Shown piece by piece: positions 3,501 through 25,956 of a stretch of DNA of 64,000 bases. The translations under genes were made by a program, and so were the position numbers. The notes beneath the pieces are model-generated. The model made no database searches, had not been told where the DNA came from, and saw only the letters and a list, made by a program, of their open reading frames with translations. Origin of the DNA: Alphaproteobacteria bacterium (lineage in GTDB: Bacteria; Pseudomonadota; Alphaproteobacteria; CALMVH01); assembly GCA_965199265.1 (NCBI GenBank), contig CBDAQV010000001.1:316180-380179 (forward strand), in the 5' to 3' direction. The number at the start of each line of letters is the position of its first letter. The first letter of the stretch is position 1.

Positions 3501-4109
3501 TCACAGGACGCCCTTGGTCGAGGGCACCACGCCCGCCATGCGCGGATCGAGCGCGACGGCCATCTTCAGCGCGCGCGCCAGGCCCTTGAAGCAGGATTCG
3601 GCGATGTGATGATTGTTCTCGCCGTGGAGGGTGGTGACGTGCAGCGTCGCGCCCGCGGCTTGCGCGAAGGCGTGGAAGAACTCGCGGAACAGCTCGGTAT
3701 CCATCTCGCCGATCTTGTCGCGGCGGAACTCCACCTGCCAGACGAGGTAAGGGCGGTTGGACAGGTCGATGGCAACGCGGCTCAGCGCCTCGTCCATCGG
3801 GATGTAGGCGTGCCCGTAGCGCACGATGCCGGCGCGGTCGCCCAGCGCCTTCTTCACCGCCTCGCCCAGCGCGATGCCGGTGTCCTCCGTCGTGTGGTGC
3901 ATGTCGATGTGCAGGTCGCCCTCGGCCCGGACCGTAAGGTCGATCAGGCCGTGCCGCGCCACCTGGTCCAGCATGTGGTCGAGGAAGCCGATGCCGGTCG
4001 CGATGTCGCTTTTGCCCGTGCCGTCGAGGTCGACGTCGACGACGATCCGCGTTTCGCGAGTCGCGCGCTCGATGCGACCCCGGCGGCCTGCCGTGCTGTT
4101 TTCATCCAT
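3501..4109 (-). CDS. hisB: Imidazoleglycerol-phosphate dehydratase
   Basis: [16 protein letters not shown]…[18 protein letters not shown]…[11 protein letters not shown] is canonical HisB. Confidence 0.95.
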
Positions 4110-4204: not shown

Positions 4205-4765
4205 GTGAGCGACCCCGCGACAAACCCCACGGTCTGGCACGGCACCACCATCTTATCCGTCCGCAAGCACGGCAGGGTCGTGGTCATCGGCGACGGGCAG
4301 GTCACGCTCGGCAATACCGTGGTCAAGGCTAACGCGCGCAAGGTGCGGCGCGTGGGCGGTCCGACGGCGAACGTGATCGGCGGGTTCGCCGGCGCGACCG
4401 CCGACGCCTTCACCCTGTTCGAGCGGCTGGAGACCAAGCTGGAGAAGCACCCCGGCCAGTTGACCCGGGCCTGCGTCGAGCTGGCCAAGGACTGGCGCAC
4501 CGACCGCTACCTGCGCCGGCTGGAGGCGATGATGATCGTCGCCGACAAGGACGTGTCCCTGACGCTGACCGGCACCGGCGACGTGCTGGAGCCTGAGGAC
4601 CAGCTGATCGGCATCGGCTCGGGCGGCTCGTTCGCCCTCGCCGCCGCCCGCGCGCTGATCGACCGCGACGACATGGACAGCGAAGCCATCGCAAGGCGGG
4701 CCATGGAGATCGCCGCGGGAATTTGCATCTACACGAATAACAACTTCACGATCGAAACGCTGTGA
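4205..4765 (+). CDS. hslV: ATP-dependent protease subunit HslV
   Basis: …[31 protein letters not shown]… carries the Thr active site after HGTT. A GTG at 4205 is the likely start; the ORF also runs in-frame from 4148. Confidence 0.9.
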
Positions 4766-6078
4766 CCGCCTTCTCCCCTCGCGAGATCGTTTCCGAACTT
4801 GACCGCTTTATCGTCGGCCAGACCGACGCCAAGCGCGCCGTCGCCATCGCGCTGCGCAACCGCTGGCGCCGCCAGCAACTGCCCGATGCGCTGCGCGACG
4901 AGGTGCTGCCAAAGAACATCCTGATGATCGGCCCGACCGGCGTCGGCAAGACCGAGATCGCGCGCCGCCTTGCGCGGCTGGCGCAGGCGCCGTTCCTGAA
5001 GGTGGAGGCGACCAAGTTCACCGAGGTCGGCTATGTCGGGCGCGACGTCGACTCGATCGCCCGCGACCTGCTGGACATCGCGATGGCCATGACGCGCGAG
5101 AAGCTGCGCAAGGACGTGGCGGCCAAAGCCGAGCTTGCGGCGGAGGAACGGGTGCTGAACGCGCTGGTTGGCGACAACGCCAGCGACGGCACGCGCCAGG
5201 CCTTTCGCAAAAAGCTGCGCGACGGCGAGCTGAACGACAAGGAGATCGAGATCGAGGTCGCCGATACAGGTGGTAGCGGGGGAATGCCGATGTTCGACGT
5301 GCCGGGCATGCCGGGCGCGCAGATGGGCATGCTCAACCTTGGCGACATGCTGGGCAAGGCGATGGGCGGGCGCACCAGGACGCGCCACCTGACCGTCGCG
5401 CAGTCCTACGAAGTGCTGATGATCGAGGAGTCGGACAAGCTGGTCGACAACGAACGCGTCGTGCGCGAGGCGATCGAGGCGGTGGAGCAGAACGGCATCG
5501 TCTTCCTCGACGAAATCGATAAGATCGCGGGGCGGTCGGAGTACAAGGGCGGCGGCGATGTCAGCCGCGAGGGCGTGCAGCGCGACCTGCTGCCGCTGAT
5601 CGAAGGCACGACGGTGCAGACCAAGCACGGCCCGGTCAGGACCGATCACATCCTGTTCATCGCCTCGGGCGCGTTCCACATGGCAAAGCCCTCGGACCTG
5701 CTGCCCGAGCTGCAGGGCCGCCTGCCGATCCGCGTCGAGCTGAAGCCGCTGGTCGAGGCCGACTTCAAGCGCATCCTGCTCGAACCCGAGGCCAGCCTCA
5801 TCAAGCAATACATCGCGCTGCTGAAGACCGAGGGCGTGGACCTCGTCTTCACCGACGATTCCATCGACGCGCTGGCGCGATTGTCGGTCGAGATCAACGG
5901 CAGCGTCGAGAACATCGGCGCCCGCCGCCTGCATACCGTGCTGGAACGCCTGCTGGAGGAGATCAGCTTCGCCGCCGCCGACCAGTCCGGCCAGACGATC
6001 ACCATCGACGGCAATCTGGTTCAGGAACGCATCGGATCTCTGGCGAAGGACACGGATCTCAGCAAGTTCATCCTGTAA
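4762..6078 (+). CDS. hslU: ATP-dependent protease ATPase subunit HslU
   Basis: Walker [19 protein letters not shown] is present and the 438-aa protein matches HslU over its full length. The GTG start overlaps the hslV stop. Confidence 0.95.
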
Positions 6079-6147
6079 AAGGGAATCGCAACCTGTGCGG
6101 CCCGGAAGGCAGTCGACAACATAGTGTCGTAATATTTTAAAGTTACA

Positions 6148-6190
6148 AACGCCTCCCCCGCAAAATATTCTGCGGGGGAGGCGTTTTCAC
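6148..6190 (+). terminator. Rho-independent terminator of hslU
   Basis: A perfect 15-bp stem aacgcctcccccgca / tgcgggggaggcgtt with loop aaatattc is followed by a T-run. Confidence 0.75.
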
Positions 6191-6224
6191 GCTTGCATTA
6201 GAGATTTGAGATTGCATAAATGAA

Positions 6225-6265
6225 AACGCCGCTCGGGAACGGTTGGAGCCAACCCGAGCGGCGTT
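6225..6265. terminator. Second, bidirectional hairpin
   Basis: A perfect 13-bp stem aacgccgctcggg / cccgagcggcgtt has T-runs on both strands. It lies just upstream of the ATG at 6291. Confidence 0.55.
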
Positions 6266-6290
6266 TTGCAACTCCTATCACGAGGCTATC

Positions 6291-7586
6291 ATGATTGAGC
6301 ACGTTAAACCTACGGCACGAATACCAGCAGTTCAAGGGTCGTTTGGGCCACGTCTTTTGTCGTACACCACACAACTCCCGGCGGGGTCTCTTGAAACGAT
6401 CGTTGGCCACGATCCCAGATCGAAACAATGGAAGCGATTGCCCGATGACATAGCTAATATATATGAACACTTGCAGCGTGCGACAACTAAGCAGCGGCTC
6501 GATTCAATTATTCGCTACATACGCTACCGCTTCATGGAGCGTTCAATCGTTGTTGGTGCTTTTCCTGCAATTTCTATTGCCGTCCAAAACAGTACGCCGT
6601 TTGAGCCATATAGTTCTATTTCAGACAGTGGAGTTGGTGTTTTACAATTCGACCTTTCGCGCCGCAATCTTAGGATCGTAGTTGACGGTCTTGGTAGAGC
6701 TTCGGCTAGCCTAGAATTGGTGGAACTCGCTGAATCAGATGACTTAATGCCAGATGCTAAGGTAGCGCTTCAAAGCCTTTTGAAGGATTTTTCTCTGCCA
6801 ACCGTATTTTATATGCCTGCTCCGGGAACGCCTCCTCTCAGCCTTAGAGAAATGCAGCAGCTATTTCATGATTTCAATTTTAAGGTCACTGCAGTACCGG
6901 CTCGTATTGCTATAGCTCTCGACCATTCAGACCTCTATATTGGGCTTGCTAATCGAATAGGTGAGTCAAACCCAATCCAAGTCCATGGCGGTATGGAAGT
7001 TAAAGCAGCCTCATTGGGCAAGAAGTCGACTGCAATCGTCGTCCAGCAAAATCTAGTGAGATTTGTCCGGGCGGCTACTGAGGGGGAACGATTTATAGAA
7101 GGTACATCCAACAGCGACTTGAAGGAGCCGAATCTCACGGATGAAACTCGGGAAGCGTTTGAGGAGGGAATTATAAAGTTTTTGGATGCGTTTTCTGCGA
7201 GTATGGGGCCGGAGAAATTCAAAGATCGTGAAGGTCTCCATTTGACGGCGCCTGGATGGGGTTCTCTCGGATTGATTTATCACGATCTGGCCGAACGACT
7301 GAAGGTTCCTGATGTCCCGTCAGCCGCAGCCAAGATCGGTAAGCTGAATTGGACGCGTTCTGCTGATATGTGGAAGAATATCGTTCGTGAGCGTGATGAC
7401 AAGGAAGGTAATAGGGTACTTGGTCTCGCAGCAGGCGGAGCCCAGAACCGCCGTTATCTTACAAACGCTGTCCGACACTATCTTGGTTTGGATACTCTTT
7501 TGAAAGAAAAAGGTTTCTCAGATGATAAGGAACCTGACGAGTTAGTTTATTCGCCCGCTGCGAAAAGCGTTGATGAGGAGAACTAA
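6291..7586 (+). CDS. Divergent DGQHR-domain (DndB-like, ParB/Srx-fold) protein with DGLGR in place of DGQHR
   Basis: The N-terminal …AVQGSFGPRLLSYTTQLPAGSLETIV… resembles the DGQHR-family N-motif. RIVVDGLGRASA sits at the DGQHR position. Downstream QQLFHDFNFKVTAVPARIAIALD resembles the family's LFxDxN motif. The locus is low-GC, and an RBS gagg lies 5 nt before the ATG at 6291; the ORF track starts at 6243, inside the hairpin. Confidence 0.55.
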   Translation: MIEHVKPTARIPAVQGSFGPRLLSYTTQLPAGSLETIVGHDPRSKQWKRLPDDIANIYEHLQRATTKQRLDSIIRYIRYRFMERSIVVGAFPAISIAVQNSTPFEPYSSISDSGVGVLQFDLSRRNLRIVVDGLGRASASLELVELAESDDLMPDAKVALQSLLKDFSLPTVFYMPAPGTPPLSLREMQQLFHDFNFKVTAVPARIAIALDHSDLYIGLANRIGESNPIQVHGGMEVKAASLGKKSTAIVVQQNLVRFVRAATEGERFIEGTSNSDLKEPNLTDETREAFEEGIIKFLDAFSASMGPEKFKDREGLHLTAPGWGSLGLIYHDLAERLKVPDVPSAAAKIGKLNWTRSADMWKNIVRERDDKEGNRVLGLAAGGAQNRRYLTNAVRHYLGLDTLLKEKGFSDDKEPDELVYSPAAKSVDEEN

Positions 7587-7588
7587 TT

Positions 7589-7813
7589 ATGAAAGGAGGT
7601 TCATTTCACCGCTCTCGGTGCAGGGCTTTAACACCTTCGGATGCAGCCTTGATCAAAGGAATGCTGTCCAGAGGTGATCTGCAGAGCAATATAGCGGCAT
7701 TCTTTGGGGTAAACGGAGGACGCATTTCGGAAATCAATACGGGAAGGCGCTATTCGTCGATTCAGCCAGTTTACGAAGAATTACCTCCTCCTGGTCCGTA
7801 CAAGGTCCACTAA
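7589..7813 (+). CDS. Small helix-turn-helix (HTH) DNA-binding protein (Hin/resolvase- or IS630-type HTH pattern)
   Basis: LTPSDAALIKGMLSRGDLQSNIAAFFGVNGGRISEINTGRRY fits the L-x6-I-x6-G-x5-IA-x2-FGV-x4-I HTH pattern. The ATG lies 2 nt after the stop of the preceding gene, with aaggagg upstream. Confidence 0.5.
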   Translation: MKGGSFHRSRCRALTPSDAALIKGMLSRGDLQSNIAAFFGVNGGRISEINTGRRYSSIQPVYEELPPPGPYKVH

Positions 7814-7920
7814 CTACCACCGGGTATCCCAGGTTTGCCTAAGCAGCCTGGGATATTCTCTGATTATTAATGATATGATGGTCACCTTACTTATTCTGTA
7901 ACGCAAGATTTAAGGTCATA

Positions 7921-8328
7921 ATGATTATTGGGGTTGAAACAACCGCTCCGCCCCCGCCGGAGCCGACGGAGGACGACATTCGCCGCCTGCTCGACGCGTT
8001 CTACGACCGTGTCCGCGCCGATCCGCTGATCGGGCCGGTGTTCCTGCGCGCGCTCGGCACGACCGCGGAGGACTGGGCGCCGCACATGGCGCGGCTGAAC
8101 GATTACTGGTCCAACGTCATGCTGCGCACAGGGCGCTACCGCGGCAACATCCTGCACACCCACCAGCGCTTGCCCGATCTGCAGCCCGAAATGTTCGACC
8201 GCTGGCTGGCGCTGTTCGGCAACACCTGCGCCGAAATGCTCGACCCGGCGCTGGCCGAGAACTTCAGACAGCGCGCCAACCACATCGGCAAGAACTTGCG
8301 GGCCAGTTTGTTCGGCCGGGTGTTGTAA
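7921..8328 (+). CDS. Truncated haemoglobin (group III-like globin)
   Basis: DIRRLLDAFYDRVRADPLIGPVF…HQRLP…, about 135 aa, is typical of the truncated-haemoglobin family. Confidence 0.65.
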   Translation: MIIGVETTAPPPPEPTEDDIRRLLDAFYDRVRADPLIGPVFLRALGTTAEDWAPHMARLNDYWSNVMLRTGRYRGNILHTHQRLPDLQPEMFDRWLALFGNTCAEMLDPALAENFRQRANHIGKNLRASLFGRVL

Positions 8329-15299: not shown

Positions 15300-16328
15300 T
15301 TGGCGCGCCGCCCCTACCGCAACGTCGCGGCGCTTTGCCTGGCGCTTCTGCTGACCTTGCCCCTGCCGGCCATGGCGGCGGGCTCGGGCGTGGTCGTTGC
15401 CAGTTCGGGAAGCAAGGACAGTGTCCGTTTCGCCGAATGGCAGGAGTTCCGGCGCAACGTCGACGACAGGAGTAGCGGCTCGCTGCTGCTCGACTACCTC
15501 ATCTTCGGTGAGCTGGGTTCGGCGCAATCCATGCTCCAGGCGGTCATGACCGGCAGGGCGAGCATCGGCGGCTTCGGTTGCGGGGGCATCACCGCGGCCA
15601 TTCCCGAACTGGCCGTGCCGCAAATGCCGTTCCTGTTCGCCAGCCGGGAAGAAGCCGATTTCGTCTTCGATCGTTTCCTGACGCCGATCTACTCGGACAT
15701 CCTTGGCTCGCACGGACTGGTCCTGCTGCGCTGGACCGATTTCGGGTTCATGGAACTTTATTCAAGGGAACCGGTGCGTTCGCCTTTCCAGCTTGCGGGC
15801 AGGTCAGTCCGCACAGTCGGCAATATATCGGGTCCCGAAATGCTAAAAGCGGTCAGGGCCATCCCGGTCGAAGTCGGAATCGGTGAAATCGCCGACTCCA
15901 GCCAGAGCAACAAGCTGTTCGGCAGCGTCGGCACCTTGCAGAACTACGAGCGCGTGCAATCCACTTTCCCCTATGTCACCAATACCGAGCATTCCTATAA
16001 CTGCGGCGTGATCGTCGCCAACAAAGGCTGGTTCGACTCGCTGGCGCCTCAGGAACGCGACATCCTGCGCGCCTCATACCCTAAAATCGCCGACATGCGC
16101 GGTGCGCTGCAGGCCGAGGAAATGAGCCTCAGGATCAGGCTGGAGACAAAGGGCAGCGTGTTCCTGGCGCTGTCGGCGGAGGAACACAATGCGTGGGCTG
16201 CGGCGGCCTTGCCCCTTTACCCTACCATACTGAAGCAGGCCGGCGGGCGTGCCGTCGAGATCTATGACCTGATCCGGGCTGGCAAGCAGGCGTTCCTGCG
16301 AGAGCCGGCCTCAAGCCCCTTTCACTGA
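15300..16328 (+). CDS. TRAP-transporter DctP-like periplasmic solute-binding protein (orphan; no dctQM adjacent)
   Basis: A signal peptide is followed by …SGSLLLDYLIFGELGSAQSMLQAVMTGRASIGGF…, typical of the DctP family. Confidence 0.65.
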   Translation: MARRPYRNVAALCLALLLTLPLPAMAAGSGVVVASSGSKDSVRFAEWQEFRRNVDDRSSGSLLLDYLIFGELGSAQSMLQAVMTGRASIGGFGCGGITAAIPELAVPQMPFLFASREEADFVFDRFLTPIYSDILGSHGLVLLRWTDFGFMELYSREPVRSPFQLAGRSVRTVGNISGPEMLKAVRAIPVEVGIGEIADSSQSNKLFGSVGTLQNYERVQSTFPYVTNTEHSYNCGVIVANKGWFDSLAPQERDILRASYPKIADMRGALQAEEMSLRIRLETKGSVFLALSAEEHNAWAAAALPLYPTILKQAGGRAVEIYDLIRAGKQAFLREPASSPFH

Positions 16329-16420
16329 CATTGCGCATTTTTCGATGGGTAAGTACGAAAAAACTTTCATGCCGGCGCGATCGGTGGTTTAATGTGACCA
16401 AATCGTGTCGGGGGACTTCG

Positions 16421-16585
16421 ATGAACAATGATCGTAACGAGATAGTCAACGATCTGAGGCTTAGAGAAGCCGCGGAAGCTATGAGCAAGCTTTATAGCGA
16501 AAAAGGTTCGGCTGGCTACAAAGCTTTGATAAAAGTTGTTTCCACACCTGCTAACGGCAGTGGTTCCAGAAACTTCGATTTGTGA
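16421..16585 (+). CDS. Small hypothetical protein (54 aa) in an AT-rich pocket
   Basis: MNNDRNEIVNDLRLREAAEAMSKLYSEKGSAGYKALIKV… is preceded by an RBS gggggac. Confidence 0.35.
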   Translation: MNNDRNEIVNDLRLREAAEAMSKLYSEKGSAGYKALIKVVSTPANGSGSRNFDL

Positions 16586-16599
16586 TTTTCCAGCCTGTA

Positions 16600-16637
16600 A
16601 AAAAAAGGGCGGCCTCTTCAGGCCGCCCTTTTTTTGT
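16600..16637. terminator. Bidirectional rho-independent terminator
   Basis: aaaaaaaa gggcggcc tcttca ggccgccc tttttttg. Confidence 0.8.
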
Positions 16638-16645
16638 GGTTGTAG

Positions 16646-16861
16646 TCAGACGCGGCTGATCGAACCGCGTTTGTCGGCAGAGTCGTTCTTGGAATCGCGC
16701 AGAGCATCCTTCATCCCGCCCATCGCATTCTGGGCCTTGCCGGTTTCACGCATTGCGGCGCCTTCAGTTTTGAGCTTCACGTCACCCGTGAGTTTCCCTG
16801 CCGCTTCACGAAGATTGCCTTCAGCCTGGCGGAACGCACCGTTTACCCTATCCTTGTCCAT
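16646..16861 (-). CDS. CsbD-family stress-response protein
   Basis: MDKDRVNGAFRQAEGNLREAAGKLTGDVKLKTEG… is canonical CsbD. An RBS ggag precedes the start. Confidence 0.8.
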   Translation of the reverse strand: MDKDRVNGAFRQAEGNLREAAGKLTGDVKLKTEGAAMRETGKAQNAMGGMKDALRDSKNDSADKRGSISRV

Positions 16862-16940
16862 GAAAATCTCCTTTAAGTACATATTATACAACCCCAAATA
16901 CGCCCGAATTGTTCCCGGCAGCAGACCTGGCAAGCTTGAC

Positions 16941-18515
16941 TCAGCTTTTGACCGGCACGCAATGGGTCAGGACCGAACACGCGCGCTTGGCTTGCAGTTC
17001 GTTCAGCCCGGTCAGTTCCGCGCGGTAGGCGTGGCGGTGGCGGGCGTGAAGCGCAACGGATACGGGATGCGCCGCGCCGCGCACGTCCTGGGGCAGGGTG
17101 GCGACGGCTTTCTGCAGGATTGCGTCGCTTACCAAGCGGCTTGAATAAGTCCCGATCTCGACTCCCCAGGTAGGGTTTCGGCCTGCCTGGGGTGCGGAGT
17201 AGGAAGGGTTATGCATCGGTGCGCGAGGAGCGAGCGGGGCCGCAGGCGCTTCCGAAGCGTCGGCATCGCCTTGCGCAGGGGCTTCCGGCTTGAGCGGAGG
17301 CGGCGGCGATGTCACTACCGATGGTGACGGCGACGTCAGGTCGGCTTCGGTGACCGCCAGCGTTGCGGGCCCTGCAGAAGGGGTTGCGCGCACGGGCGGA
17401 GGCGTGGTCGCCGGGTAGCCGGCGCTGCTTGCGGTCTGCAAGGCGGCGGGGGTTGGCGACGGCATACCGGGCAGCGGCGCCGCAACGATTGCGGCAGGCG
17501 AAGCTGGAGAACCCTCGCCGCCTTCTACATCGTCGCCGGCTTCGGACAGGTCCACGCCATCGACCTTGCCTGCGGGGGCCGCCAGCCGGGCGATGGAGTT
17601 CTCGGCCGCCAGTTGCGGCTTTTCCGGTGGCGGCGCGGCGGTGTCCAGTGGAGCGCTGGCAATGGTCTCCTGCATGGCGCCCGAAGCCGGCGGCTGTCCG
17701 CCAACACGGGAAAACCCGTCATCCAGAAGGCCTGCCATGTAATTGTCGCGTGCCACCGCGCTGCTGCCGCCGAAGACGACCGCAATCAGGCGATGCCCGT
17801 TTCGTACCGCCGAGGCGGTCAGGTTGAACCCCGAAGCGCGGATAAAGCCGGTCTTGATCCCATCCATGCCGGGATAGCGGCTCATCAGGTGGTTGTGATT
17901 GGGATGGTTGATTCCATTGTAAGTGAACGAGCGCGTCGAGAAGTACCGGTAATACTTTGGGAAGCGCTGGATCGTCGCCTCCGCGAGCACAGCCATGTCG
18001 CGCGCGGTGGTCAGCTGTTGCGGGTCGGGCAGGCCGTTCGGGTTGTTCCAGTGCGTGTTAGTCATGCCGAGGCTGTGCGCACGGCTGGTCATCATCTGCG
18101 CGAACTGCGCCTCGCTGCCGCCGATGTTCTCGGCCAGCACCATGGCACAGTCGTTCGCCGACAGCGTCACTGCCGCCAGCACGCAGCTCTGGACGCTGAT
18201 CGTGCTGCCCGGGCGCAGGCCCAGCCTGCTGGGCGCCTGCTCGGCGGCGAGCTGCGTAACGGAAAGTGGCGTCGATAGCGACAACCGCCCTTGGCTCAGC
18301 GCCTCGAAAGTCAGATACAGCGTCATGATCTTGGTCATCGACGCCGGATACAGCTGCACGTCCGGGTTGCGGGCGTTGAGGATCCGGCCGGTGCCGGCAT
18401 CGACCACGATGAATGAATCAGCCGATTGAGCGCGGGCGCTTTCCCCCAGCAAAGGCAGCGCGAGGACGGAGCAAACCAGGGCAAGGCAGTTTCTCAAGGC
18501 GAAGGCACGAAGCAT
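16941..18515 (-). CDS. D-alanyl-D-alanine carboxypeptidase (S11, PBP5/6-like) with a proline-rich linker and C-terminal SPOR-like domain
   Basis: SMTKIMT (SxxK), SAND…, and KTG motifs are present. A long Pro/Ala-rich region is followed by a SPOR-like terminus. Confidence 0.85.
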   Translation of the reverse strand: MLRAFALRNCLALVCSVLALPLLGESARAQSADSFIVVDAGTGRILNARNPDVQLYPASMTKIMTLYLTFEALSQGRLSLSTPLSVTQLAAEQAPSRLGLRPGSTISVQSCVLAAVTLSANDCAMVLAENIGGSEAQFAQMMTSRAHSLGMTNTHWNNPNGLPDPQQLTTARDMAVLAEATIQRFPKYYRYFSTRSFTYNGINHPNHNHLMSRYPGMDGIKTGFIRASGFNLTASAVRNGHRLIAVVFGGSSAVARDNYMAGLLDDGFSRVGGQPPASGAMQETIASAPLDTAAPPPEKPQLAAENSIARLAAPAGKVDGVDLSEAGDDVEGGEGSPASPAAIVAAPLPGMPSPTPAALQTASSAGYPATTPPPVRATPSAGPATLAVTEADLTSPSPSVVTSPPPPLKPEAPAQGDADASEAPAAPLAPRAPMHNPSYSAPQAGRNPTWGVEIGTYSSRLVSDAILQKAVATLPQDVRGAAHPVSVALHARHRHAYRAELTGLNELQAKRACSVLTHCVPVKS

Positions 18516-18706: not shown

Positions 18707-19057
18707 ATGCGCATGTCCGACCACGACAAGAACAAAGAGGGAGCGGGCGGGCCGGATAACGAGTCGGGTACCGGCCTTGCGGTCAAGCCCAAGCCCAAGG
18801 TCAAGAAGCCATCGCTTTACAAGGTCCTCATGCTGAACGACGACTACACGCCGATGGAGTTCGTGGTGCACGTCCTGGAGCGATTCTTCCGCAAGAACCG
18901 CGAGGAAGCGACCAAGATCATGCTGAACATCCATCGGCGCGGCGTCGGCCTGTGCGGCGTCTACACCCATGACGTGGCGGAAACCAAGGTCAACCAGGTC
19001 ATGGAGTTCAGCCGCAAGCACCAGCACCCGCTGCAATGCACGATGGAGCGCGAATAA
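18707..19057 (+). CDS. clpS: ATP-dependent Clp protease adaptor ClpS
   Basis: …[25 protein letters not shown]… is canonical ClpS. Confidence 0.9.
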
Positions 19058-19197: not shown

Positions 19198-21525
19198 GTG
19201 AACATGCTATCACGCAACTTGGAACAGACACTGCACCGGGCCCTGGCCGAAGCGAACGCCCGGCACCACGAATATGCCATGCTGGAGCACCTGCTGCTGG
19301 CGATGACCGAGGACCAGGACGCGGTGGGCGTGCTGAAGGCCTGCGGCGTCGACCTTGTCAAGCTGCGCAAGGACCTTTCCGATTACATCGACACCGAACT
19401 GACGGACCTCGTCAGCGATTCGGGCGAGGAGGCCAAGCCGACCGCCGGCTTCCAGCGCGTGCTGCAGCGCGCCGCGATCCACGTCCAGTCCTCCGGCCGC
19501 GAGCAGGTGACAGGGGCCAACATGCTGGTCGCGCTGTTCTCCGAGCGCGAAAGCTATGCTGTGTATTTCCTGCAGGGGCAGGACATGACCCGGTTCGACG
19601 CGGTCAATTTCATCTCGCACGGCATAGCCAAGGTGCCGGGACAAGGCGAGCCGAAGCGTGCGCAGGGCGCGGTCGAGGCGGAACAGCCGTCGGCCGAAAA
19701 GCCGAACAAGAAGGGCAACGATGCGCTGGAAAGCTACTGCATCAACCTCAACAAGAAGGCCTTGTCGGGCCGCATCGACCCGCTGATCGGCCGCGAAAGC
19801 GAGATCGAGCGCACGATCCAGGTGCTGTGCCGCCGTTCGAAGAACAACCCGCTCTATGTGGGCGATCCCGGCGTCGGCAAGACCGCGATTGCCGAAGGCC
19901 TCGCCCGCCGCATCGTGCACGGCGAAGTGCCCGAAGTGCTCAAGGATGCGACCATCTTCAGCCTGGACATGGGCGCGCTGCTGGCCGGCACCCGCTACCG
20001 CGGCGATTTCGAGGAGCGGCTGAAGGCCGTCGTCAACGAGATCGACGCGCTGCCGGGCGCAATCCTGTTCATCGACGAGATCCACACCGTAATCGGCGCG
20101 GGTGCGACCAGCGGCGGGGCGATGGACGCCTCCAACCTGCTGAAGCCGGCGCTGGCCAACGGCCAGCTGCGCTGCATCGGCTCGACCACCTACAAGGAAT
20201 ACCGCGGGCACTTCGAAAAGGACCGCGCGCTGGTGCGGCGTTTCCAAAAGATCGACGTCAACGAGCCCTCGATCGAGGACGCGGTCAAGATCCTGACCGG
20301 GATCAAGCCGTACTACGAGCAGCACCACAAGGTCCGCTACACCGGCGAGGCGATCAAGGCGGCGGTCGAGCTGTCGGCGCGCTACATCGGCGATCGCAAG
20401 CTGCCGGACAAGGCGATCGACATCATCGACGAGGTCGGCGCGGCGCAGATGCTCCTGCCGGAGAACCGGCGCAAGAAGACCATCGGCGTCAAGGACATCG
20501 AGGCGGTGATCTCCAAGATCGCGCGCATCCCGGCCAAGACCGTCAGCCGCGACGACAAGGAAACGCTGCGCAACCTGACCACGACCTTGAAGACGCTGGT
20601 GTTCGGGCAGGACAAGGCGATCGATGCGCTGTCCAGCGCCATCAAGCTGGCAAGGGCCGGGCTGCGCGACCCGGAAAAGCCGATCGGCTCTTACTTGTTC
20701 TCAGGTCCCACCGGCGTCGGCAAGACGGAAGTCGCGCGCCAGTTGGCGCGGACGCTGGGCATCGAAGTCACGCGCTTCGACATGTCGGAGTACATGGAAC
20801 GGCACACGGTCAGCCGCTTGATCGGCGCGCCTCCGGGCTACGTCGGCTTCGACCAGGGCGGCCTGCTGACCGACGCCATCGACCAGCACCCGCATCAGGT
20901 GCTGTTGCTGGACGAGATCGAAAAGGCGCACCCCGACCTGTTCAACATCCTGCTGCAGGTGATGGACTACGGCAAGCTGACCGACCACAACGGCAAGGCG
21001 GTCGATTTCCGCAATGTGATCCTGATCATGACGACCAACGCCGGCGCGGCGGACATGGCGCGCAACACGATCGGCTTCGAGCGCGAGGAGCGGACGGGCG
21101 AGGATACCGACGCGATCAACCGCACCTTCACGCCCGAGTTCCGCAACCGCCTGGACGCGATCATCCCGTTCGCGGGCTTGTCGACCGACATCGTCGGGCG
21201 CGTGGTGGACAAGTTCGTGATTCAGCTGGAGGAGCAGCTGGGCGACAAGGGCGTGACCATCACCCTGTCCGATCCGGCGCGAGAGTGGCTGGCGAACAAG
21301 GGCTACGATTCGCGCATGGGCGCACGGCCCCTGGCGCGCACCATCCAGGAGTTCGTCAAGAAGCCTCTGGCGGAGGAGCTGCTGTTCGGCCGTCTGTCCA
21401 AGGGCGGCGGCGTCCGCATCGACGTCGGCCGAAGGCAAGCTGACCTTCGAGTACGAGGAACCGAGGCAGCCGCCCAAGGCCGACGTGCAGGAAGAGCCGG
21501 AGGAGGTTTTGGAGTAGCTGGGTGA
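19198..21525 (+). CDS. clpA: ATP-dependent Clp protease ATP-binding subunit ClpA, with an apparent -1 frameshift near 21428 affecting the last about 30 codons
   Basis: Two AAA+ modules are present ([16 protein letters not shown]). After …GGGVRIDVG the conserved acidic tail [29 protein letters not shown] continues in the +1 frame and ends at 21517. Confidence 0.9.
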
Positions 21526-21922
21526 CTTTTGGACCGACAGCTTACTCGTCATCCCGAACTCGTTTAGCGACTCATGGGACAGCCGACGCCCTGTTTACAA
21601 CTCGACGAGTTTTGTTCGCAAAAATAGCGAAAGCCGAAGAATGGGTCCTGATCCACGCTGCTTCGCGGCTGTCAGGATGACAATTGTGTTCTAAGCTGGC
21701 CACCAGTGGCGAAAGCACTCATCTCGCTTAGGAGAAAGCCGAGCCACTCGACGTAACCATCCGTCCATCTTGCAACCGCTTCTCGCTGGACGCGGCAAGA
21801 TCGCATAGCTGTGCCCGAACTGTCAGGGCTCCCCCGGTTGTATTTACGTTTTGCTAACGAATCGCTTGACGAAATCCTGACATTTGTTCAAGTTTCAAAC
21901 TCATTCCCCCTGTGAGAAACGG

Positions 21923-22498
21923 ATGGCCGATAACCGTACTCTGGCAATGCAGTTCCGGGGAGCGACCGAGGCGAACTCCACGCCTCAGGTCCGAACGGTC
22001 ATGAAGCGAAGCCTGCATCCGTTGATTGTTGCCCATGTCTACGGGCGGTTCGTCAGCGGGTACTCGATGGAGGGTGACTCCACGATGCCCGCTCACGCCG
22101 GGGCCGTGCTCGTTCGCAGTTCGGCTCCGGCCTTTCAGCTCGGCCAGTTCAGGCGCGCAGGCGGCGTCGTTCTTGACATCGGTAATGACGATTATCTGAA
22201 ACCCAGCCAATTCCTGGTCAGGGAAGCCTATCTTGGCAAGGCCAGCGAAGAGCAGCTTTGCCGACTGGACGAGGGCAGGCGGCTTGGGCTCGATCTCGTC
22301 TCGGCGCTGCCGCAGGCGCAAGGGTCGGACGAGGAGAGTTTTCGAAAAATCAAGGCAAGAATCGAGGCGCCCCTTGCCCTCGAACACGCGCCGCCGATGA
22401 TTCAAAAAACGTACCCGGCGCTCGGCTGGATTCCTCCCTGCTTGGCGGCAGGCCCAAGGCCGGCTCGTCAAACATGGCTCTTACAAACAGTTGAATGA
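21923..22498 (+). CDS. Hypothetical protein with weak S24 (LexA/UmuD-like) peptidase-like motifs
   Basis: …RFVSGYSMEGDSTMPAHAGAVLVRS…GGVVLDIGNDDYLKPSQ… resembles the UmuD/LexA Ser-Lys dyad region (SG[DM]SM … K) by eye. The start MADNR at 21923 follows gagaaacgg. Confidence 0.45.
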   Translation: MADNRTLAMQFRGATEANSTPQVRTVMKRSLHPLIVAHVYGRFVSGYSMEGDSTMPAHAGAVLVRSSAPAFQLGQFRRAGGVVLDIGNDDYLKPSQFLVREAYLGKASEEQLCRLDEGRRLGLDLVSALPQAQGSDEESFRKIKARIEAPLALEHAPPMIQKTYPALGWIPPCLAAGPRPARQTWLLQTVE

Positions 22499-23043
22499 CC
22501 AGCATGGAAAAGCCCAGCCCCTTCTCGCGTTTCATCAACTGGATGAGCAACGACGAAATGAAGCGAGCAAACCAGGCCAATAACAACGAAACCGTTCGGG
22601 AAGCGGTCCTGGACGTCGTGGGCTGGCGCTTCGAGCGGCTTGTGTTCGTGATCCATAACTCAGATTCCGGCGCCGCCGCCGGAAAAGGGTTGGTTCCCGC
22701 GCTGTGGGGCGACCTGGTGGCGCGCGACGGTATGCGTGACCAGATCGATACCTTCCGCGCCGCTGGCGGCGTCGCCCTCAACCGCAGATCGGTCGATGGC
22801 CTGCGCCCTACCGACTTCTTGGCAAAGCTGGCCTGCCAGGCGCGCGGCACCGCGCAGTGGGAACCGATCCTGGCGCGCATGCACGCGGTCCAGAGGCTCG
22901 GGCTTGTTTTCGACGAACGAACCCTTTCGCGCACCGCTCGCAGAATGCAGGCGTACGGAAGCAACGTCGTGAAGGAGCTGCGCCAGGAACTGGACGCTCC
23001 TGCCGGGTTTGGTCATGGATCCGGCAACGCCCGCTATCCTTGA
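22495..23043 (+). CDS. Hypothetical protein, translationally coupled to the upstream gene
   Basis: ATGA overlaps the stop of the upstream gene. The 182-aa protein has no recognisable domain. Confidence 0.5.
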   Translation: MTSMEKPSPFSRFINWMSNDEMKRANQANNNETVREAVLDVVGWRFERLVFVIHNSDSGAAAGKGLVPALWGDLVARDGMRDQIDTFRAAGGVALNRRSVDGLRPTDFLAKLACQARGTAQWEPILARMHAVQRLGLVFDERTLSRTARRMQAYGSNVVKELRQELDAPAGFGHGSGNARYP

Positions 23044-23046
23044 CGC

Positions 23047-23622
23047 ATGACGACCGAACTCACCGCTTATATCATCCAGGGCCTGTGGCTGTTCTGGGCG
23101 CTGTGCTGGCTGGCCGCTTCGGTGCGCAACAAGAAGGCGCGCGACCGGGAGGCGACGTGGTCGCGGCTGCGCTACCAGATCGTGATCGCGGCGGGCGTGC
23201 TGCAGCTGTTCCTGGGCCTGCCTACGCTCGACAACGCCGACTCCGAGCTGTTCACCCGCTATCCGGGATTTCACATCGTCTGCGTCCAGCTGGTCGCCGC
23301 GGGCCTGGGCTGGGCGCTTTACGCGCGCTTTCACCTTGGAGCCAACTGGAGCGGGACCGTGCAGGTAAAACGAGACCACCAGCTGATCCGCAGCGGCCCC
23401 TACCGCTACACGCGTCACCCGATCTACTCCGGGCTGCTGCTTGCGTTCCTCGGCCTCGACCTGTTCCTCGACCGGTGGCTGGGCATTCCCGCCATCCTAT
23501 TGTTGGTAGCCGGTTTCCGCATGAAGATCGCGCGCGAGGAAAAGTTCATGCGCCGGCAGTTCGGCCGCATGTACGAAGCCTACACCGCGGAGGTGCCCAT
23601 GCTGCTGCCGCGTCTTTTCTAG
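23047..23622 (+). CDS. Isoprenylcysteine carboxyl methyltransferase (ICMT)/PEMT-family membrane methyltransferase
   Basis: …LIRSGPYRYTRHPIYSGLLLAFLG… is the ICMT-family signature. Multiple transmembrane (TM) helices are present. Confidence 0.75.
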   Translation: MTTELTAYIIQGLWLFWALCWLAASVRNKKARDREATWSRLRYQIVIAAGVLQLFLGLPTLDNADSELFTRYPGFHIVCVQLVAAGLGWALYARFHLGANWSGTVQVKRDHQLIRSGPYRYTRHPIYSGLLLAFLGLDLFLDRWLGIPAILLLVAGFRMKIAREEKFMRRQFGRMYEAYTAEVPMLLPRLF

Positions 23623-23677: not shown

Positions 23678-24001
23678 ATGTCCTCAGGCGAAACAACCAC
23701 CGATCACGACACCATCCGCGAATGGGTCGAAGCGCGCGGCGGCGTGCCGGCGACTGTCACCGCGACGGAGGAAGGCGAACACGCAGGCATCCTGCGGATC
23801 ATGTTTCCCAAGGCCAAGCAGGCACACGACGACAATCTGGAACAGATCGAGTGGGAAGAGTTCTTCGAAAAGTTCGACGATTCCGAGCTGGCGTTCCTTT
23901 ACCAGGACAAGACGGCGGACGGTAAGGAAAGCCGGTTTTTCAAGTTTGTCCACGGAGGGGAGCACAGGAAAGCAAAGGCGACCAAGCGCAAGTCGGCCTG
24001 A
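23678..24001 (+). CDS. Small conserved hypothetical protein
   Basis: An RBS gggag precedes MSSGETTTDHDTIREWVEARGGVPA… in an acidic 107-aa protein. Confidence 0.5.
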   Translation: MSSGETTTDHDTIREWVEARGGVPATVTATEEGEHAGILRIMFPKAKQAHDDNLEQIEWEEFFEKFDDSELAFLYQDKTADGKESRFFKFVHGGEHRKAKATKRKSA

Positions 24002-24061: not shown

Positions 24062-24586
24062 ATGGCTGATATGCGCGCGCAGATCCAATTGGCCAGGATT
24101 CAAGACGATGCGTGGCTGTGGGGCACCTTGGTTGCCAGATTGATGGAAGCAGATTTCCCGGAGGGGATGAAGGCAGCGCTTAGCGGTGTGGCCCGGGGAA
24201 GTCCCGGAGGCGCGGTAAAACGCCGCGCCGGCGAACTGATTGTCGGCAATTTGCAGTTGTTTGCCGAAAGCGACGTTCGCGAGGCGATGGACGCGGCGGT
24301 CACGGCGGCAATCTACTCGGCTCCCGACAGCGAAACGCGGGCGCGCGCGACCGAGTTCGTCGTCACGAACCTGGAGCGTCTGGCCGGCATAGACAGCAAG
24401 CTGGCGGCCGATAACTCCCGGTTTGCGCTGAGTTGGACAAAGCCGGGCAGCAAACTGGAACGCGAAGCCGCAACGATCTGGAGTCGGCTCAAGGTCCAGC
24501 AGCCCGGAAGGGAACGGGAAACGGCCTACTCCGAATCCATGCTGTTTGACGAGTCGCCCTGTTCCTCCGGGGTCAGGAGCGCCTGA
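24062..24586 (+). CDS. Hypothetical protein
   Basis: A 175-aa ORF begins MADMRAQ…. It has no motifs. Confidence 0.4.
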   Translation: MADMRAQIQLARIQDDAWLWGTLVARLMEADFPEGMKAALSGVARGSPGGAVKRRAGELIVGNLQLFAESDVREAMDAAVTAAIYSAPDSETRARATEFVVTNLERLAGIDSKLAADNSRFALSWTKPGSKLEREAATIWSRLKVQQPGRERETAYSESMLFDESPCSSGVRSA

Positions 24587-24675
24587 CGTTCTTCTGTGAT
24601 CCTCGCTGGCGACGGCCAATAACGGGAACCCTCCTCGTGCCAGGCCGTTAGACCCTCGAACTCGAGGAGACAGTC

Positions 24676-25956
24676 ATGGCAGTGAAATTGAAGCCCGTCG
24701 GAGAGCAGGTCGTTGTTCTTACCGGCGCGACCAGCGGCATAGGGCTGGCATCTGCCAAGCGTTTTGCGCGCGAAGGTGCCAAACTGGTGCTTGCCGCCCG
24801 AAACGAGGCGGAACTGAGCAAGCTCGTTGCCGAGATCACTGCTTCGGGAGGGGAAGCTGTTTCCCATGCGCTCGACGTAATGGACCGGGCGGAAGTTGAA
24901 AACCTGGCCCAGACCGCGATCAGCCGGTTTGGGCGCATCGACACTTGGGTCAACGACGCCGGAGTCGGGATCTGGGGCAAGCTGGAGGAGATCAGCGAGG
25001 ACGACAACCGCCGCCTGTTCGACACGAACTTCTGGGGCCTCGTGAACGGTTCTCTGGTCGCGACCAAACACATGAAGGAGAGCGGCGGCGCTATCATCAA
25101 CCTCGGCAGCGTCGCGTCCGAGGTCACTTTGCCGTACCAGTCGATGTACAGCGCTTCCAAGCACGCAATCTTTGGCTTTACGGACGGTTTGCGGCAGGAG
25201 TTGGCGATCGACAAGGCGCCGATTTCGGTGACCTTGATCCGGCCTGCAGCGATCGGCACGCCTTTCGGCGAGAAAGCAAAGAACTACCTGAAGCAGGAGC
25301 CGCAACTGCCGCCTCCCGTCTACGACGTGGAGGAGGTCGCGATCGGCATCGTTTACGCCGCGGGCAACTCCATCCGCGATGTGTACATCGGCGGCGGCGC
25401 GAAAATGATGACCGCGCTGAACAAGATCGCCCCGCGGGTCGTCGACTTTGTAGCCGAGAAGATCATGGTGAGGGCGGAGTTGAAAGGGGAGCCGGCGCGA
25501 CCACGAAACGACAATCTGTTCGGCAGCGTGAGCGAAGGCAGGGAACGGGGTGAGCAGGTCAGCCACAAGCCGATGCCCAGCCTGTACACGCGCGCCCTGA
25601 CCCATCCCGCCGCCGCGCTGAGCGTGCTGACGGGCGTGGTCGCGGTCGGCGCGGCGTTATCCTACGCGTTGGCTGAGCACAGGGCACAGCGAGGGTTCGG
25701 GGGCCACGCGCGCAAGGTCGCGGAAAACCTGGCCCACCACGCGGGCCGTTTCGGCGGACGCTTCAGTGATTATGCCGGACATGCCCGGAACCGGGCAGGC
25801 GATGCTTCGGATCAGGCTGGCCGTTTCGGCAACCGTTTCGCCGGCCGTCTCAGGGATTGGGCGGACGACGAAGTTTCTACTCGCGCGCTGAAGTACGGAA
25901 GGAAATATGGAAAGTGCGCGCAGCGCTGGGCCAAGGATCACAACTCGTTCGATTGA
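24676..25956 (+). CDS. Short-chain dehydrogenase/reductase with a C-terminal TM segment and Gly/Arg-rich GRFGGRF repeats
   Basis: The SDR N-terminus VVVLTGATSGIGLASAKRF, NDAGVG, and YSASKHA are followed by the TM helix LSVLTGVVAVGAALSYALA and a repeat tail. Confidence 0.85.
   Translation: MAVKLKPVGEQVVVLTGATSGIGLASAKRFAREGAKLVLAARNEAELSKLVAEITASGGEAVSHALDVMDRAEVENLAQTAISRFGRIDTWVNDAGVGIWGKLEEISEDDNRRLFDTNFWGLVNGSLVATKHMKESGGAIINLGSVASEVTLPYQSMYSASKHAIFGFTDGLRQELAIDKAPISVTLIRPAAIGTPFGEKAKNYLKQEPQLPPPVYDVEEVAIGIVYAAGNSIRDVYIGGGAKMMTALNKIAPRVVDFVAEKIMVRAELKGEPARPRNDNLFGSVSEGRERGEQVSHKPMPSLYTRALTHPAAALSVLTGVVAVGAALSYALAEHRAQRGFGGHARKVAENLAHHAGRFGGRFSDYAGHARNRAGDASDQAGRFGNRFAGRLRDWADDEVSTRALKYGRKYGKCAQRWAKDHNSFD

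Follow-up and report, generated by a model that had tools for sequence, protein, structure and literature searches.

Two Paralogous Genes of a Lineage-Restricted, Predicted All-Alpha Family Next to an ICMT-Family Methyltransferase Gene in an Alphaproteobacterium

Three closely packed genes downstream of clpA

Do three closely packed genes from an alphaproteobacterial genome form a single system, and is the product of the first of them a Ser-Lys peptidase? The genes lie within a stretch of 64,000 nucleotides, called the window here. An initial annotation, made from the sequence alone, had read them as a translationally coupled cassette encoding an S24/UmuD-like protein, a protein of no recognizable domain, and a membrane methyltransferase of the isoprenylcysteine carboxyl methyltransferase (ICMT) family. 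The packing is as described there. The three genes are co-oriented on the plus strand, genes 1 and 2 share an ATGA overlap at positions 22495 to 22498, and a spacer of 3 nt (CGC) separates the stop codon of gene 2 from the ATG of gene 3 at position 23047. We also agree that no described system has this combination. The features of the locus are listed below; L002 through L010 denote related loci on other contigs.

clpS, 18707..19057, plus strand: conserved left flank; the L002 ClpS gene (PF02617) is 87% identical
clpA, 19198..21525, plus strand: 775-aa ORF, conserved gene that bounds the variable slot on the left, GC3 of 0.88
Spacer, 21526..21922, no strand: 397 bp without a recognized element
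Gene 1, 21923..22498, plus strand: 191 aa, member of an orphan family predicted to be all-alpha
Gene 2, 22495..23043, plus strand: 182 aa, same orphan family as gene 1, always the copy adjacent to the ICMT gene
Gene 3, 23047..23622, plus strand: 191 aa, ICMT/PEMT-family integral-membrane SAM-dependent methyltransferase
g4, 23678..24001, plus strand: acidic protein of 107 aa that occupies another variable slot, with the ICMT gene on one side and g5 on the other
g5, 24062..24586, plus strand: 174-aa soluble helical protein, conserved partner downstream of the ICMT gene
SDR, 24676..25956, plus strand: membrane-anchored short-chain dehydrogenase (PF00106, 2.3e-49), conserved right end of ICMT-g5-SDR

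The spacer between clpA and gene 1 has the lower GC content that had been reported (0.524 versus 0.636 for the whole window), over 397 bp rather than 370 bp. The palindromic element that had been placed in it was not borne out. The spacer contains only a modest, imperfect hairpin at positions 21645 to 21676 (-16 kcal/mol; z = -1.9; equaled by 9 of 200 shuffles), which occurs once in the window and lies outside the window's strong hairpins. The sequence TGTCAGG occurs three times in the spacer, and the spacer shares no repeat with the rest of the window. An Rfam search of the spacer gave no match at an E value of ≤1, and the Rfam matches of the entire window included none of relevance. Neither a sigma-70-like promoter nor a plus-strand terminator was found between clpA and gene 1, and the spacer holds no recognizable remnant or pseudogenized copy of the gene 1/2 family. 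From gene 1 to the end of g5, the only plus-strand terminator-like site before the hairpin at the g5 end itself (24572 to 24587) lies inside g4.

Judged by sequence homology, genes 1 and 2 are real genes rather than chance ORFs, since both have same-frame homologs on two other contigs (E = 9e-16 and 2e-17). An antisense ORF at positions 21854 to 22471 was rejected as a true gene, because the plus-strand frame has homologs in the related loci and the antisense frame has none. An alternative start for gene 1 is the TTG at position 21884. The codon bias of gene 1 is weak, with a GC3 of 0.68, compared to 0.77 to 0.81 for gene 2 and 0.87 to 0.88 for clpA and the ICMT gene.

Genes 1 and 2: peptidase pattern, relatives, and predicted fold

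Gene 1 does carry the residues that had suggested a peptidase, S45-G-Y-S48-M and K93, and its Ser-to-Lys spacing of 45 residues is inside the S24 range. The likeness to the S24 family (the C-terminal domain of LexA, UmuD, and lambda CI; PF00717) consists of this G-x-S-M, with a Lys about 45 residues beyond it, and nothing more. As a candidate S24/UmuD-like peptidase, gene 1 failed every test, namely profile, Ser, Lys, fold, LexA similarity, and box. No match to PF00717 or to another family was obtained with gene 1 or with any of the eight members of its family, described below (Pfam at E ≤ 1 and E ≤ 10; NCBIfam at E ≤ 1), and phmmer against the PDB returned noise only. Comparison with E. coli LexA gave a P value of 0.41 by hhalign over 10 columns of the HTH part and an E value of 5.8 by BLASTP. 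In the other family members the S48 column is gapped or holds a residue other than Ser, and in the nearest ortholog, P0126, the whole SGYSM stretch falls in a gap. K93 is an Arg in six members and a Gln in P0126, such that seven of the eight members lack a Lys in this position. The alignment thus has the Ser/Lys pattern lost across the family.

The predicted structure points the same way. S24 domains are all-beta, whereas gene 1 is predicted to be all-alpha, and the SGYSM stretch sits in a linker of that model with pLDDT values of <50. No LexA, UmuD, or CI chain was among the Foldseek PDB matches of the gene 1 and gene 2 models. The alphaproteobacterial LexA box, GTTCN7GTTC, was absent from positions 21526 to 21922 at up to one mismatch, and its 62 matches in the whole window are close to the 49 expected by chance; for the gammaproteobacterial box, CTGTN8ACAG, the check was by eye only. 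Genes 1 and 2 are not Ser-Lys peptidases.

The description of gene 2 as lacking a recognizable domain conceals what matters most about it, its paralogy with gene 1 (27% identity over 113 aa; E = 1.3e-6). Searches with tblastn and blastp linked the two genes to each other, to five genes of L003, and to one gene of L002. Gene 1 is most similar to the L003 gene at 4681 to 5142 (P0126; 40% identity over 92 aa; E = 9e-16), and gene 2 is most similar to the copies adjacent to the ICMT gene, L002 7559 to 7903 (P0125; 42% identity; E = 2e-17) and L003 5188 to 5784 (P0127; 36% identity). These ortholog identities are higher than the 27% between genes 1 and 2, and therefore the duplication is older than the split of these genomes. 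The family alignment, A1, comprises eight members (genes 1 and 2, five from L003, and one from L002) of about 150 to 210 aa, with pairwise identities of 21 to 42% and pI values that span 4.7 to 9.9. Conserved in this alignment are an N-terminal motif, A-R-x-A-N-S-x-P-x-V, a central motif, P-A-x-W-G-D ... F-x-x-A-G-G-V-x-L-N-R-x-x-x-D-G-x-R-P-S-D-x-L, and, following it, W ... A-A-x-x-x-G-x-x-F-D. The conserved core of gene 1 covers about aa 56 to 150. Its C-terminal 40 aa have a GC3 of 0.56, no counterpart in P0126, and pLDDT values of <50, and this tail is probably the result of read-through into a former spacer.

The known distribution of the family is narrow. With every filter disabled, a local HMM search recovered the eight members and nothing further in the window or in L004 to L007. 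Word-indexed searches of 5.8 billion proteins with genes 1 and 2 returned self matches only, and a HMMER full profile search of 1.84 billion representatives, with a profile built from gene 1 and gene 2 only, returned those two plus P0125, P0126, and P0127, which are the L002 and L003 genes. That profile missed three known L003 members, and the three-contig distribution is therefore a lower bound. Two metagenome scans with closer family subalignments gave no relatives, two plasmid tblastn searches were empty, and the family had no match in Pfam, NCBIfam, PDB, PHROG, or PADLOC, a PDB profile search yielding only a chance histone match (E = 0.49). The lineage is thinly sampled, each protein that was looked up being a singleton 90% cluster. 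In L002 and L003, respectively, identities to the window are 93 to 97% (intact fragments) and 76% for ClpA, 74% and 69% for the ICMT protein, 63% and 56% for g5, and 42% and 36% for gene 2, with 40% for gene 1 against L003. By these identities, the gene 1/2 family evolves about twice as fast as its neighbors.

AlphaFold2 (AF2) models of both proteins, which were built on a five-sequence alignment and are of moderate confidence, are all-alpha. The gene 1 model is all helix without strands (pLDDT 66.5, with residues 36 to 53 and 152 to 191 below 50), and the gene 2 model has nine helices and no strands (pLDDT 72.7; pTM 0.68), with a core at residues 68 to 150 of pLDDT 85 to 93. In three separate Foldseek searches (PDB and BFVD), ankyrin-repeat proteins led the weak top matches of both models. 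None was significant (best E = 0.67 to 2.2; TM 0.2 to 0.35), the best being 9kbu_A with a probability of 0.69 and an rmsd of 3.9 Å over 104 columns. Profile comparison by hhalign with the DARPin E3_5 gave a score of 17.4 (P = 0.053 to 0.057), whereas shuffles gave 11.0 ± 1.7 and none of 80 scored as high. The consensus ankyrin x4 scored 18.2, which 3 of 80 shuffles reached, and a TPR control scored 7.9. In the DARPin alignment, AGGVALNRRSVDGLRP of the family is paired with ANGADVNATDNDGYTP.

The family may resemble ankyrin proteins (Pfam clan Ank; DARPins; the Bdellovibrio immunity protein Bd3460) in that its models suggest helix-turn-helix units joined by a loop, and the ankyrin motif G-A-D-V-N-x-x-D-x-x-G-x-T-P can be placed in register with the family loop A-G-G-V-x-L-N-x-x-x-D-G-x-R-P. 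It differs in its low TM scores and in an extra conserved N-terminal helical segment with the A-N-S motif. Unlike ankyrin proteins, none of the eight members matched a Pfam ankyrin model at an E value of ≤10, a search in which HMMER filters may drop weak matches, and comparison of the family profile with itself for an internal repeat (approximately 33-residue periodicity) gave no off-diagonal alignment (P = 0.83). The models suggest a degenerate ankyrin-like helical-repeat ancestry for genes 1 and 2, and it is because of this assignment that we infer a role in protein binding.

Gene 3 and gene order across the related loci

For gene 3, the family assignment of the initial annotation held. Its product matched PF04191 (3e-13; 50.5 bits against a cutoff of 25) and PF04140 (2.5e-12; 47.5 bits against a cutoff of 24), which assigns it, at the level of sequence, to the ICMT/PEMT family of membrane methyltransferases. 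Among the structures and enzymes of the ICMT family (the Methanosarcina acetivorans homolog 4A2N, Ste14/ICMT 5V7P and 5VG9, and RhlM), 4A2N aligns with essentially all of gene 3 (E = 6e-13 over residues 13 to 190 of 191), with R-H-P-I-Y and E-E-x-x-x-x-x-x-F-G-x-x-Y-x-x-Y visible in that alignment; gene 3 has the C-terminal R-H-P-x-Y-x-G ... E-E ... F-G-x-x-Y-x-x-Y of the family. Like other prokaryotic members, it is about 190 aa long with several membrane segments, which a crude method (Kyte-Doolittle, 19-residue windows of ≥1.6) placed at residues 43 to 61, 75 to 93, and 137 to 162. It differs from a true isoprenylcysteine methyltransferase in scoring 79.8 bits, under the cutoff of 160, against the NCBIfam equivalog NF040696 (isopcys_mtase). 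The sole characterized bacterial ICMT-family enzyme, RhlM, acts on an amphiphilic lipid substrate (PMC11069360); gene 3 differs from it in having no rhamnolipid genes close by. By analogy, O-methylation by gene 3 most likely targets an amphiphilic substrate that partitions into the membrane.

Orthologs of gene 3 share 74% (L002), 69% (L003), 62% (L004), 60% (L005/L006), and 57% (L007) identity with it, and a contig scan with gene 3 produced only an uninformative, 38%-identical Novosphingobium fragment. The slot between clpA and the ICMT gene holds one family copy in L002, two here, and five in L003. L003 repeats the order gene 1 type, gene 2 type, ICMT, and L002 repeats a gene 2 type followed by ICMT. 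Co-conservation of the three genes is narrow, seen in the immediate clade but absent beyond it, in L004 to L010. Upstream of the 62, 60, and 57% orthologs the genes are unrelated and no family member lies within 8 to 10 kb, and three remoter orthologs (L008 to L010; 42 to 45% identity) likewise have unrelated upstream genes and contexts. The gap to the ICMT gene measures 3, 42, and 97 nt here, in L003, and in L002, respectively. The ATGA overlap and the 3-nt spacing are specific to this genome, and therefore genes 1 to 3 are probably cotranscribed here without being a dedicated functional triad.

What is kept lies on the other side of gene 3. The order ICMT-g5-SDR is retained in L004 and L005, and ICMT-g5 in L002 and L003. 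These stable neighbors, a helical g5 and a membrane-anchored SDR, set gene 3 apart from the known ICMT-family cases. The g5 ORF opens with a TTG at position 24026 and is conserved from the Met at position 24062; its product is 63, 56, 46, and 40% identical to those of the genes downstream of the ICMT gene in L002, L003, L004, and L005, respectively, and matches designed helical-repeat proteins weakly (7mwq_B; E = 1.4e-3). The SDR has a single hydrophobic segment, at residues 310 to 333, and is 53 to 54% identical to the SDR genes in the same position in L004 and L005. The intervening g4 has no family or PDB match and is absent from L002 to L007, its position being occupied by a Fic gene in L004 and a NUDIX-like gene in L005.

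Competing explanations for the locus

We give a probability of about 0.6 to the reading that genes 1 and 2 are helical-repeat paralogs specific to this lineage, which probably bind proteins and which adjoin an unrelated lipid-type methyltransferase module, and that the three genes are not one three-part system. Under this reading, genes 1 and 2 are ancient tandem duplicates from a lineage-restricted family of soluble all-alpha proteins, a family that fills a copy-number-variable slot from clpA to the ICMT gene. They would most likely be nonenzymatic protein-binding modules whose partners may differ among paralogs. Gene 3 is an ordinary bacterial ICMT-family inner-membrane methyltransferase with g5 and the SDR, rather than genes 1 and 2, as its stable partners. 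The ATGA overlap probably arose through loss of the gene 1 stop codon, which extended the reading frame across the former spacer.

A different view would make genes 1 and 2 dedicated soluble partners of the ICMT enzyme, cotranslated with it and serving as carboxyl-methylated substrates or as substrate-presenting adaptors. A gene 2-type copy stands directly upstream of the ICMT gene, on the same strand, in three of three family-bearing genomes, which could reflect a functional link to the ICMT enzyme, and the overlap, the 3-nt spacer, and the run from gene 1 to the end of g5 with a terminator-like site only in g4 fit as well. We nevertheless consider it unlikely, given that the 62, 60, and 57% ICMT orthologs retain g5 and/or the SDR without the family, that the spacing to the ICMT gene widens in L003 and L002, that one to five copies and rapid divergence are atypical of an obligate enzyme partner, and that in L003 other genes separate most copies from the ICMT gene. 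The family might instead be an orphan array of immunity or anti-effector proteins, ankyrin-like inhibitors each directed against a separate toxin or enzyme that competitors deliver, which would explain the tandem duplication and diversification. Like polymorphic-toxin immunity arrays, it consists of small, divergent, co-oriented paralogs, predicted to be cytoplasmic, in tandem and in numbers (1, 2, or 5) that vary among close relatives; it also evolves faster than its flanks and is highly variable in charge, and its weak ankyrin-like matches include Bd3460 (5ced_B and 5cec_B). This, too, seems improbable. Those matches have probabilities of 0.05 to 0.14 only, no Pfam immunity family or PADLOC model was matched, and no toxin, secretion-system, or Rhs/CDI gene is present in the window flanks or related loci. 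The neighbors there are clpSA, DD-carboxypeptidase, DctP, ICMT, SDR, CFA synthase, and PheT, placing the array in a core-chromosome locus beside clpSA, between clpA and housekeeping-type genes.

Position alone suggests that the family could modulate ClpS/ClpA as adaptors, anti-adaptors, or dedicated substrates, as in all three genomes the array follows clpS-clpA immediately and in the same orientation, and no terminator-like site lies between clpA and gene 1 in this window. Against this, L002 and L003 have a clear hairpin and T-run after clpA, Pfam and NCBIfam revealed no similarity to known Clp adaptors, and clpSA is universal while the family is on three contigs only, making such a role very unlikely. 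We regard it as equally far-fetched that genes 1 and 2 are decaying or nonfunctional ORFs in junk spacer. The low GC3 of gene 1 relative to its neighbors, its unconserved tail and low-confidence linker, and the orphan status of the family would fit, but three diverged contigs have kept intact ORFs of similar length whose motifs are conserved and whose orthologs correspond in position, the models are confident in their cores (gene 2, pLDDT 85 to 93), and the GC3 of gene 2 is higher. The least credible explanation, which we hold to be extremely unlikely, is an HTH-less, self-cleaving S24 Ser-Lys peptidase working in a damage- or phage-responsive system with an unknown partner and the ICMT enzyme. 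The S-G-Y-S-M at residues 45 to 49, the Lys 45 residues on, and the tight packing speak for it; the failed family and LexA comparisons, the missing box, the state of both sites in P0126, the all-alpha model, and the lack of any PADLOC or PHROG match speak against it.

A bolder proposal is that the family is new, fast diversifying, and ankyrin derived, forming arrays of one to five genes at a fixed hotspot below clpSA in which each paralog neutralizes or recruits a different protein. The paralogs would then be immunity or anti-effector proteins, or ClpAP adaptors or anti-adaptors. We consider this doubtful; if true, this thinly sampled bacterial lineage would possess, at the hotspot, a chromosomal "binding-protein nursery" of a new kind.

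On the preferred reading, of lineage-specific paralogs beside an unrelated methyltransferase module, the S24-based three-gene system does not exist as proposed, and so there is no new damage- or phage-response module to infer. The case warns that chance can give an orphan ORF a short motif of catalytic appearance. The finding that stands is a small unannotated protein family whose detectable members are all on three contigs. It occupies a variable hotspot flanked by conserved genes and is a useful illustration of how genes arise and diversify within one lineage. Gene 3 adds one more case to the large and almost uncharacterized bacterial ICMT family, and g5 and the membrane-anchored SDR are better candidates for its functional partners than the upstream genes.

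Gene packing and the spacer behind clpA

The three genes flagged in the initial annotation (genes 1 to 3) follow clpS and clpA on the plus strand. They were compared with L002 to L007, contigs that carry orthologues of the ICMT-family gene 3 with their surroundings.

Features around clpA and genes 1 to 3 (window positions)
18707-19057, +, clpS
19198-21525, +, clpA
Between clpA and gene 1, spacer of 397 bp, GC 0.524 versus a window mean of 0.636
21923-22498, +, gene 1, 191 aa; alternative TTG start at 21884
22495-23043, +, gene 2, 182 aa
23047-23622, +, gene 3, 191 aa
23678-24001, g4, acidic 107-aa orphan
24062-24586, g5, 63, 56, 46, and 40% identity in L002, L003, L004, and L005
24676-25956, membrane-anchored SDR, 53 to 54% identity in L004 and L005

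The tight packing proposed for the three genes was borne out, with an ATGA overlap between genes 1 and 2 at 22495-22498 and a 3-nt spacer (CGC) ahead of gene 3. The palindromic element placed in the clpA-gene 1 spacer amounted to only a modest imperfect hairpin (21645-21676, -16 kcal/mol, z = -1.9) with no second copy found in the window, and searches of the spacer for a strong short-range inverted repeat, a remnant of the gene 1/gene 2 family, and a GTTCN7GTTC LexA box found none. Within these 397 bp there are three copies of the heptamer TGTCAGG, at 21670-21676 (+), 21821-21827 (+), and 21876-21882 (-), against seven in the entire 64-kb window; the second and third copies lie in inverted orientation 48 bp from each other, immediately upstream of gene 1. 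The corresponding stretches of L002 and L003 lack TGTCAGG, and the repeats, noticed post hoc, may be a local operator or may be due to chance. A GC-rich hairpin with a T-run (GGGCCGGGGAGGAAACTCTCCGGCCCTTT) stands right behind the clpA stop in L002 (6513-6560) and L003 (1256-1300). It is missing from the window, compared at 21526-21560, so transcriptional read-through from clpA into gene 1 would be possible in this genome.

Elsewhere in the window, GC dips below the mean at 6001-8000 (0.48 to 0.49), 16001-17000 (0.55), and 58001-59000 (0.55), stretches that may be islands or intergenic or RNA regions. A perfect 16-nt hairpin at 16600-16635 (AAAAAAAGGGCGGCCT / AGGCCGCCCTTTTTTT, 4-nt loop), with A7 and T7 runs at its sides, resembles an intrinsic terminator for both directions, placed between DctP-like and DD-carboxypeptidase genes.

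A paralogous family in the clpA-ICMT slot

GC at third codon positions (GC3) is 0.68 in gene 1, 0.77 in gene 2, and 0.87 to 0.88 in the ICMT gene and clpA, and codon-position GC supports coding in the frames listed, weakly for gene 1. An antisense ORF across gene 1 was rejected as an alternative; unlike genes 1 and 2, it is without matches in related loci. Neither gene matched Pfam or NCBIfam, and word-indexed searches of 5.8 billion proteins returned only the queries themselves. Orthologues of gene 3 exist at 74, 69, 62, 60, and 57% identity, and in the two closest loci, L002 and L003, clpS and/or clpA lies upstream of the ICMT gene as in the window, with unannotated genes between. Local tblastn/blastp matched gene 1 to L003 4681-5142 (40% over 92 aa, E = 9e-16) and gene 2 to L002 7559-7903 (42%, E = 2e-17), L003 5188-5784 (36% identity), and L003 1997-2617 (29% over 137 aa). 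Both genes match one and the same L002 stretch and are also similar to each other (27% over 113 aa, E = 1.3e-6), so they are paralogues within a single family. An eight-member alignment comprises five copies from L003, two from the window, and one, frameshifted, from L002, a 3x assembly; when every six-frame ORF in the window and L004 to L007 was searched by HMM with filters off, no further copies were found.

The L002 slot holds its family copy and an opposite-strand RNase_T-like exonuclease gene (6596-7177, -; RNase_T/DEDDh-like, PF00929 E = 1.3e-4, 23.0 bits versus a cut-off of 24). The L003 slot holds five copies and a further pair of proteins, 195 and 197 aa long and paralogous to each other (2686-3273 and 3270-3863, 4-nt overlap; 30% identity, E = 1.7e-20), which have hydrophobic, signal-peptide-like N termini and no Pfam match. 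The closest relative of gene 1 is L003_4681, and those of gene 2 are the ICMT-adjacent copies L002_7559 and L003_5188. With each gene closest to its own counterpart, the duplication predates the split of the window, L002, and L003 genomes, both paralogues having been retained.

Identity to the window protein (for genes 1 and 2, to their counterparts)
ClpA: L002 93-97%, L003 76%
ICMT: L002 74%, L003 69%
g5: L002 63%, L003 56%
Gene 2: L002 42%, L003 36%
Gene 1: L002 no orthologue, L003 40%

The family is thus diverging at roughly twice the rate of its neighbors. The last 40 residues of gene 1 have no counterpart in P0126 (L003 4681-5142, its positional orthologue), a pLDDT below 50, and a GC3 of 0.56; L003 gaps equivalent to the gene 1/gene 2 junction measure 46 to 102 nt. 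The ATGA overlap thus probably arose when gene 1 read through into a former spacer.

A HMMER search of 1.84 billion representative proteins, with a profile built from genes 1 and 2 only, gave five proteins at E ≤ 0.001, namely, genes 1 and 2, P0125 (L002 7559-7903), P0126, and P0127 (L003 5188-5784), the latter three being exactly the L002/L003 genes. Since this narrow profile overlooked three of the known L003 copies, the family may have more distant relatives beyond those detected; nothing was added by two scans of metagenomes or by two tblastn searches of plasmids. Every window protein looked up was a singleton cluster at 90% identity, found on a single contig of 517,144 bp. The source lineage is therefore poorly sampled, which inflates the apparent orphan status of its proteins.

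Fold of the gene 1/gene 2 family

Gene 1 had been read as S24/UmuD-like from a Ser-Lys pattern. The residues are present (S45-G-Y-S48-M and K93) but are no family-wide feature: the S48 column is gapped and non-conserved in the eight-member alignment, six members have Arg opposite K93, and P0126 lacks the entire VAHVYGRFVSGYSMEGDSTMP stretch and has Gln at the K93 position. No family member matched PF00717 at E ≤ 10, comparison of gene 1 with E. coli LexA gave an hhalign P of 0.41 and a BLASTP E of 5.8, and PADLOC and PHROGs gave no match. The AlphaFold2 models are helical throughout (gene 1, pLDDT 66.5, pTM 0.63, with the SGYSM stretch in a linker of pLDDT <50; gene 2, nine helices, pLDDT 72.7, pTM 0.68, core 85 to 93), and Foldseek against the PDB returned no LexA, UmuD, or CI chain. 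With no profile match, Ser and Lys not conserved, helical models, and no LexA box, computation, as far as it can go, refutes the S24 reading.

The family proteins are predicted to be soluble, no 19-residue hydropathy window reaching the 1.6 cut-off (maximum, 0.87), and their pI spans 4.7 to 9.9. Conserved motifs are A-R-x-A-N-S-x-P-x-V at the N terminus, P-A-x-W-G-D ... F-x-x-A-G-G-V-x-L-N-R-x-x-x-D-G-x-R-P-S-D-x-L in the center, and, after it, W ... A-A-x-x-x-G-x-x-F-D. Foldseek gave nothing significant for either model; among its weak matches, ankyrin-repeat proteins come first, with both models in the PDB and with the gene 2 model in BFVD, the best match being 9kbu_A (probability 0.69, rmsd 3.9 Å over 104 columns). 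In hhalign, the family AGGVALNRRSVDGLRP falls in register with DARPin ANGADVNATDNDGYTP, scoring 17.4 versus 11.0 ± 1.7 for shuffles (0 of 80 as high); consensus ankyrin x4 scored 18.2, a value that 3 of 80 shuffles attained, and a TPR control scored 7.9. Unlike ankyrin proteins, however, the family gives no match to Pfam Ank models and has no detectable internal repeat. We consider it more probable than not, though unproven, that the fold is a degenerate ankyrin-like helical repeat.

The ICMT gene, its partners, and the role of the slot

The ICMT-family assignment of gene 3 held: PF04191 and PF04140 matched above cut-offs, 4A2N aligned over residues 13-190 (E = 6e-13) including the C-terminal cofactor stretch, and the protein has several hydrophobic segments. 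It falls below the NCBIfam equivalog cut-off for true isoprenylcysteine methyltransferase. The protein is a genuine ICMT/PEMT-family membrane methyltransferase, an ordinary ICMT-family enzyme. The only characterized bacterial member is RhlM, which methylates the carboxyl group of a rhamnolipid; RhlM aside, this large family is unexplored in bacteria (PMC11069360).

Beyond L002 and L003, the upstream side differs: in L004 the ICMT gene is preceded by an ECF sigma/anti-sigma pair, in L005 by hslVU, and in L007 by amine oxidases, and ICMT relatives at 42 to 45% identity have unrelated upstream genes. The L004 locus also encodes GcrA, which points to Alphaproteobacteria. Conserved neighbors across orthologous loci lie on the downstream side (g5, SDR), with the order ICMT-g5-SDR kept in L004 and L005; gene 3 is stably associated with these downstream genes, and ICMT-g5-SDR may be the real functional unit. 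In the SDR, residues 310-333 make up a C-terminal hydrophobic segment, and the protein also carries a long tail rich in Arg and Gly; g5 shows a weak resemblance to designed helical-repeat proteins (7mwq_B, E = 1.4e-3). A second variable slot, from ICMT to g5, contains g4 in the window, a Fic gene in L004 (8593-9729), a NUDIX-like gene in L005 (10698-11381), and nothing in L002 or L003. With a terminator-like hairpin behind g5 (24572-24587), any operon would reach past the three flagged genes.

Possible minority readings are that the gene 2-type copy is functionally linked to ICMT, that the family has an immunity-like role, or that its role is Clp-related, but support for all three is confined to position and architecture. 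The gene cluster is real, and its functional reading as an S24 triad is wrong. Genes 1 and 2 form a fast-evolving pair of orphan paralogues, all-alpha, probably ankyrin-like, and probably protein-binding, that lie in the slot of variable copy number behind clpA.
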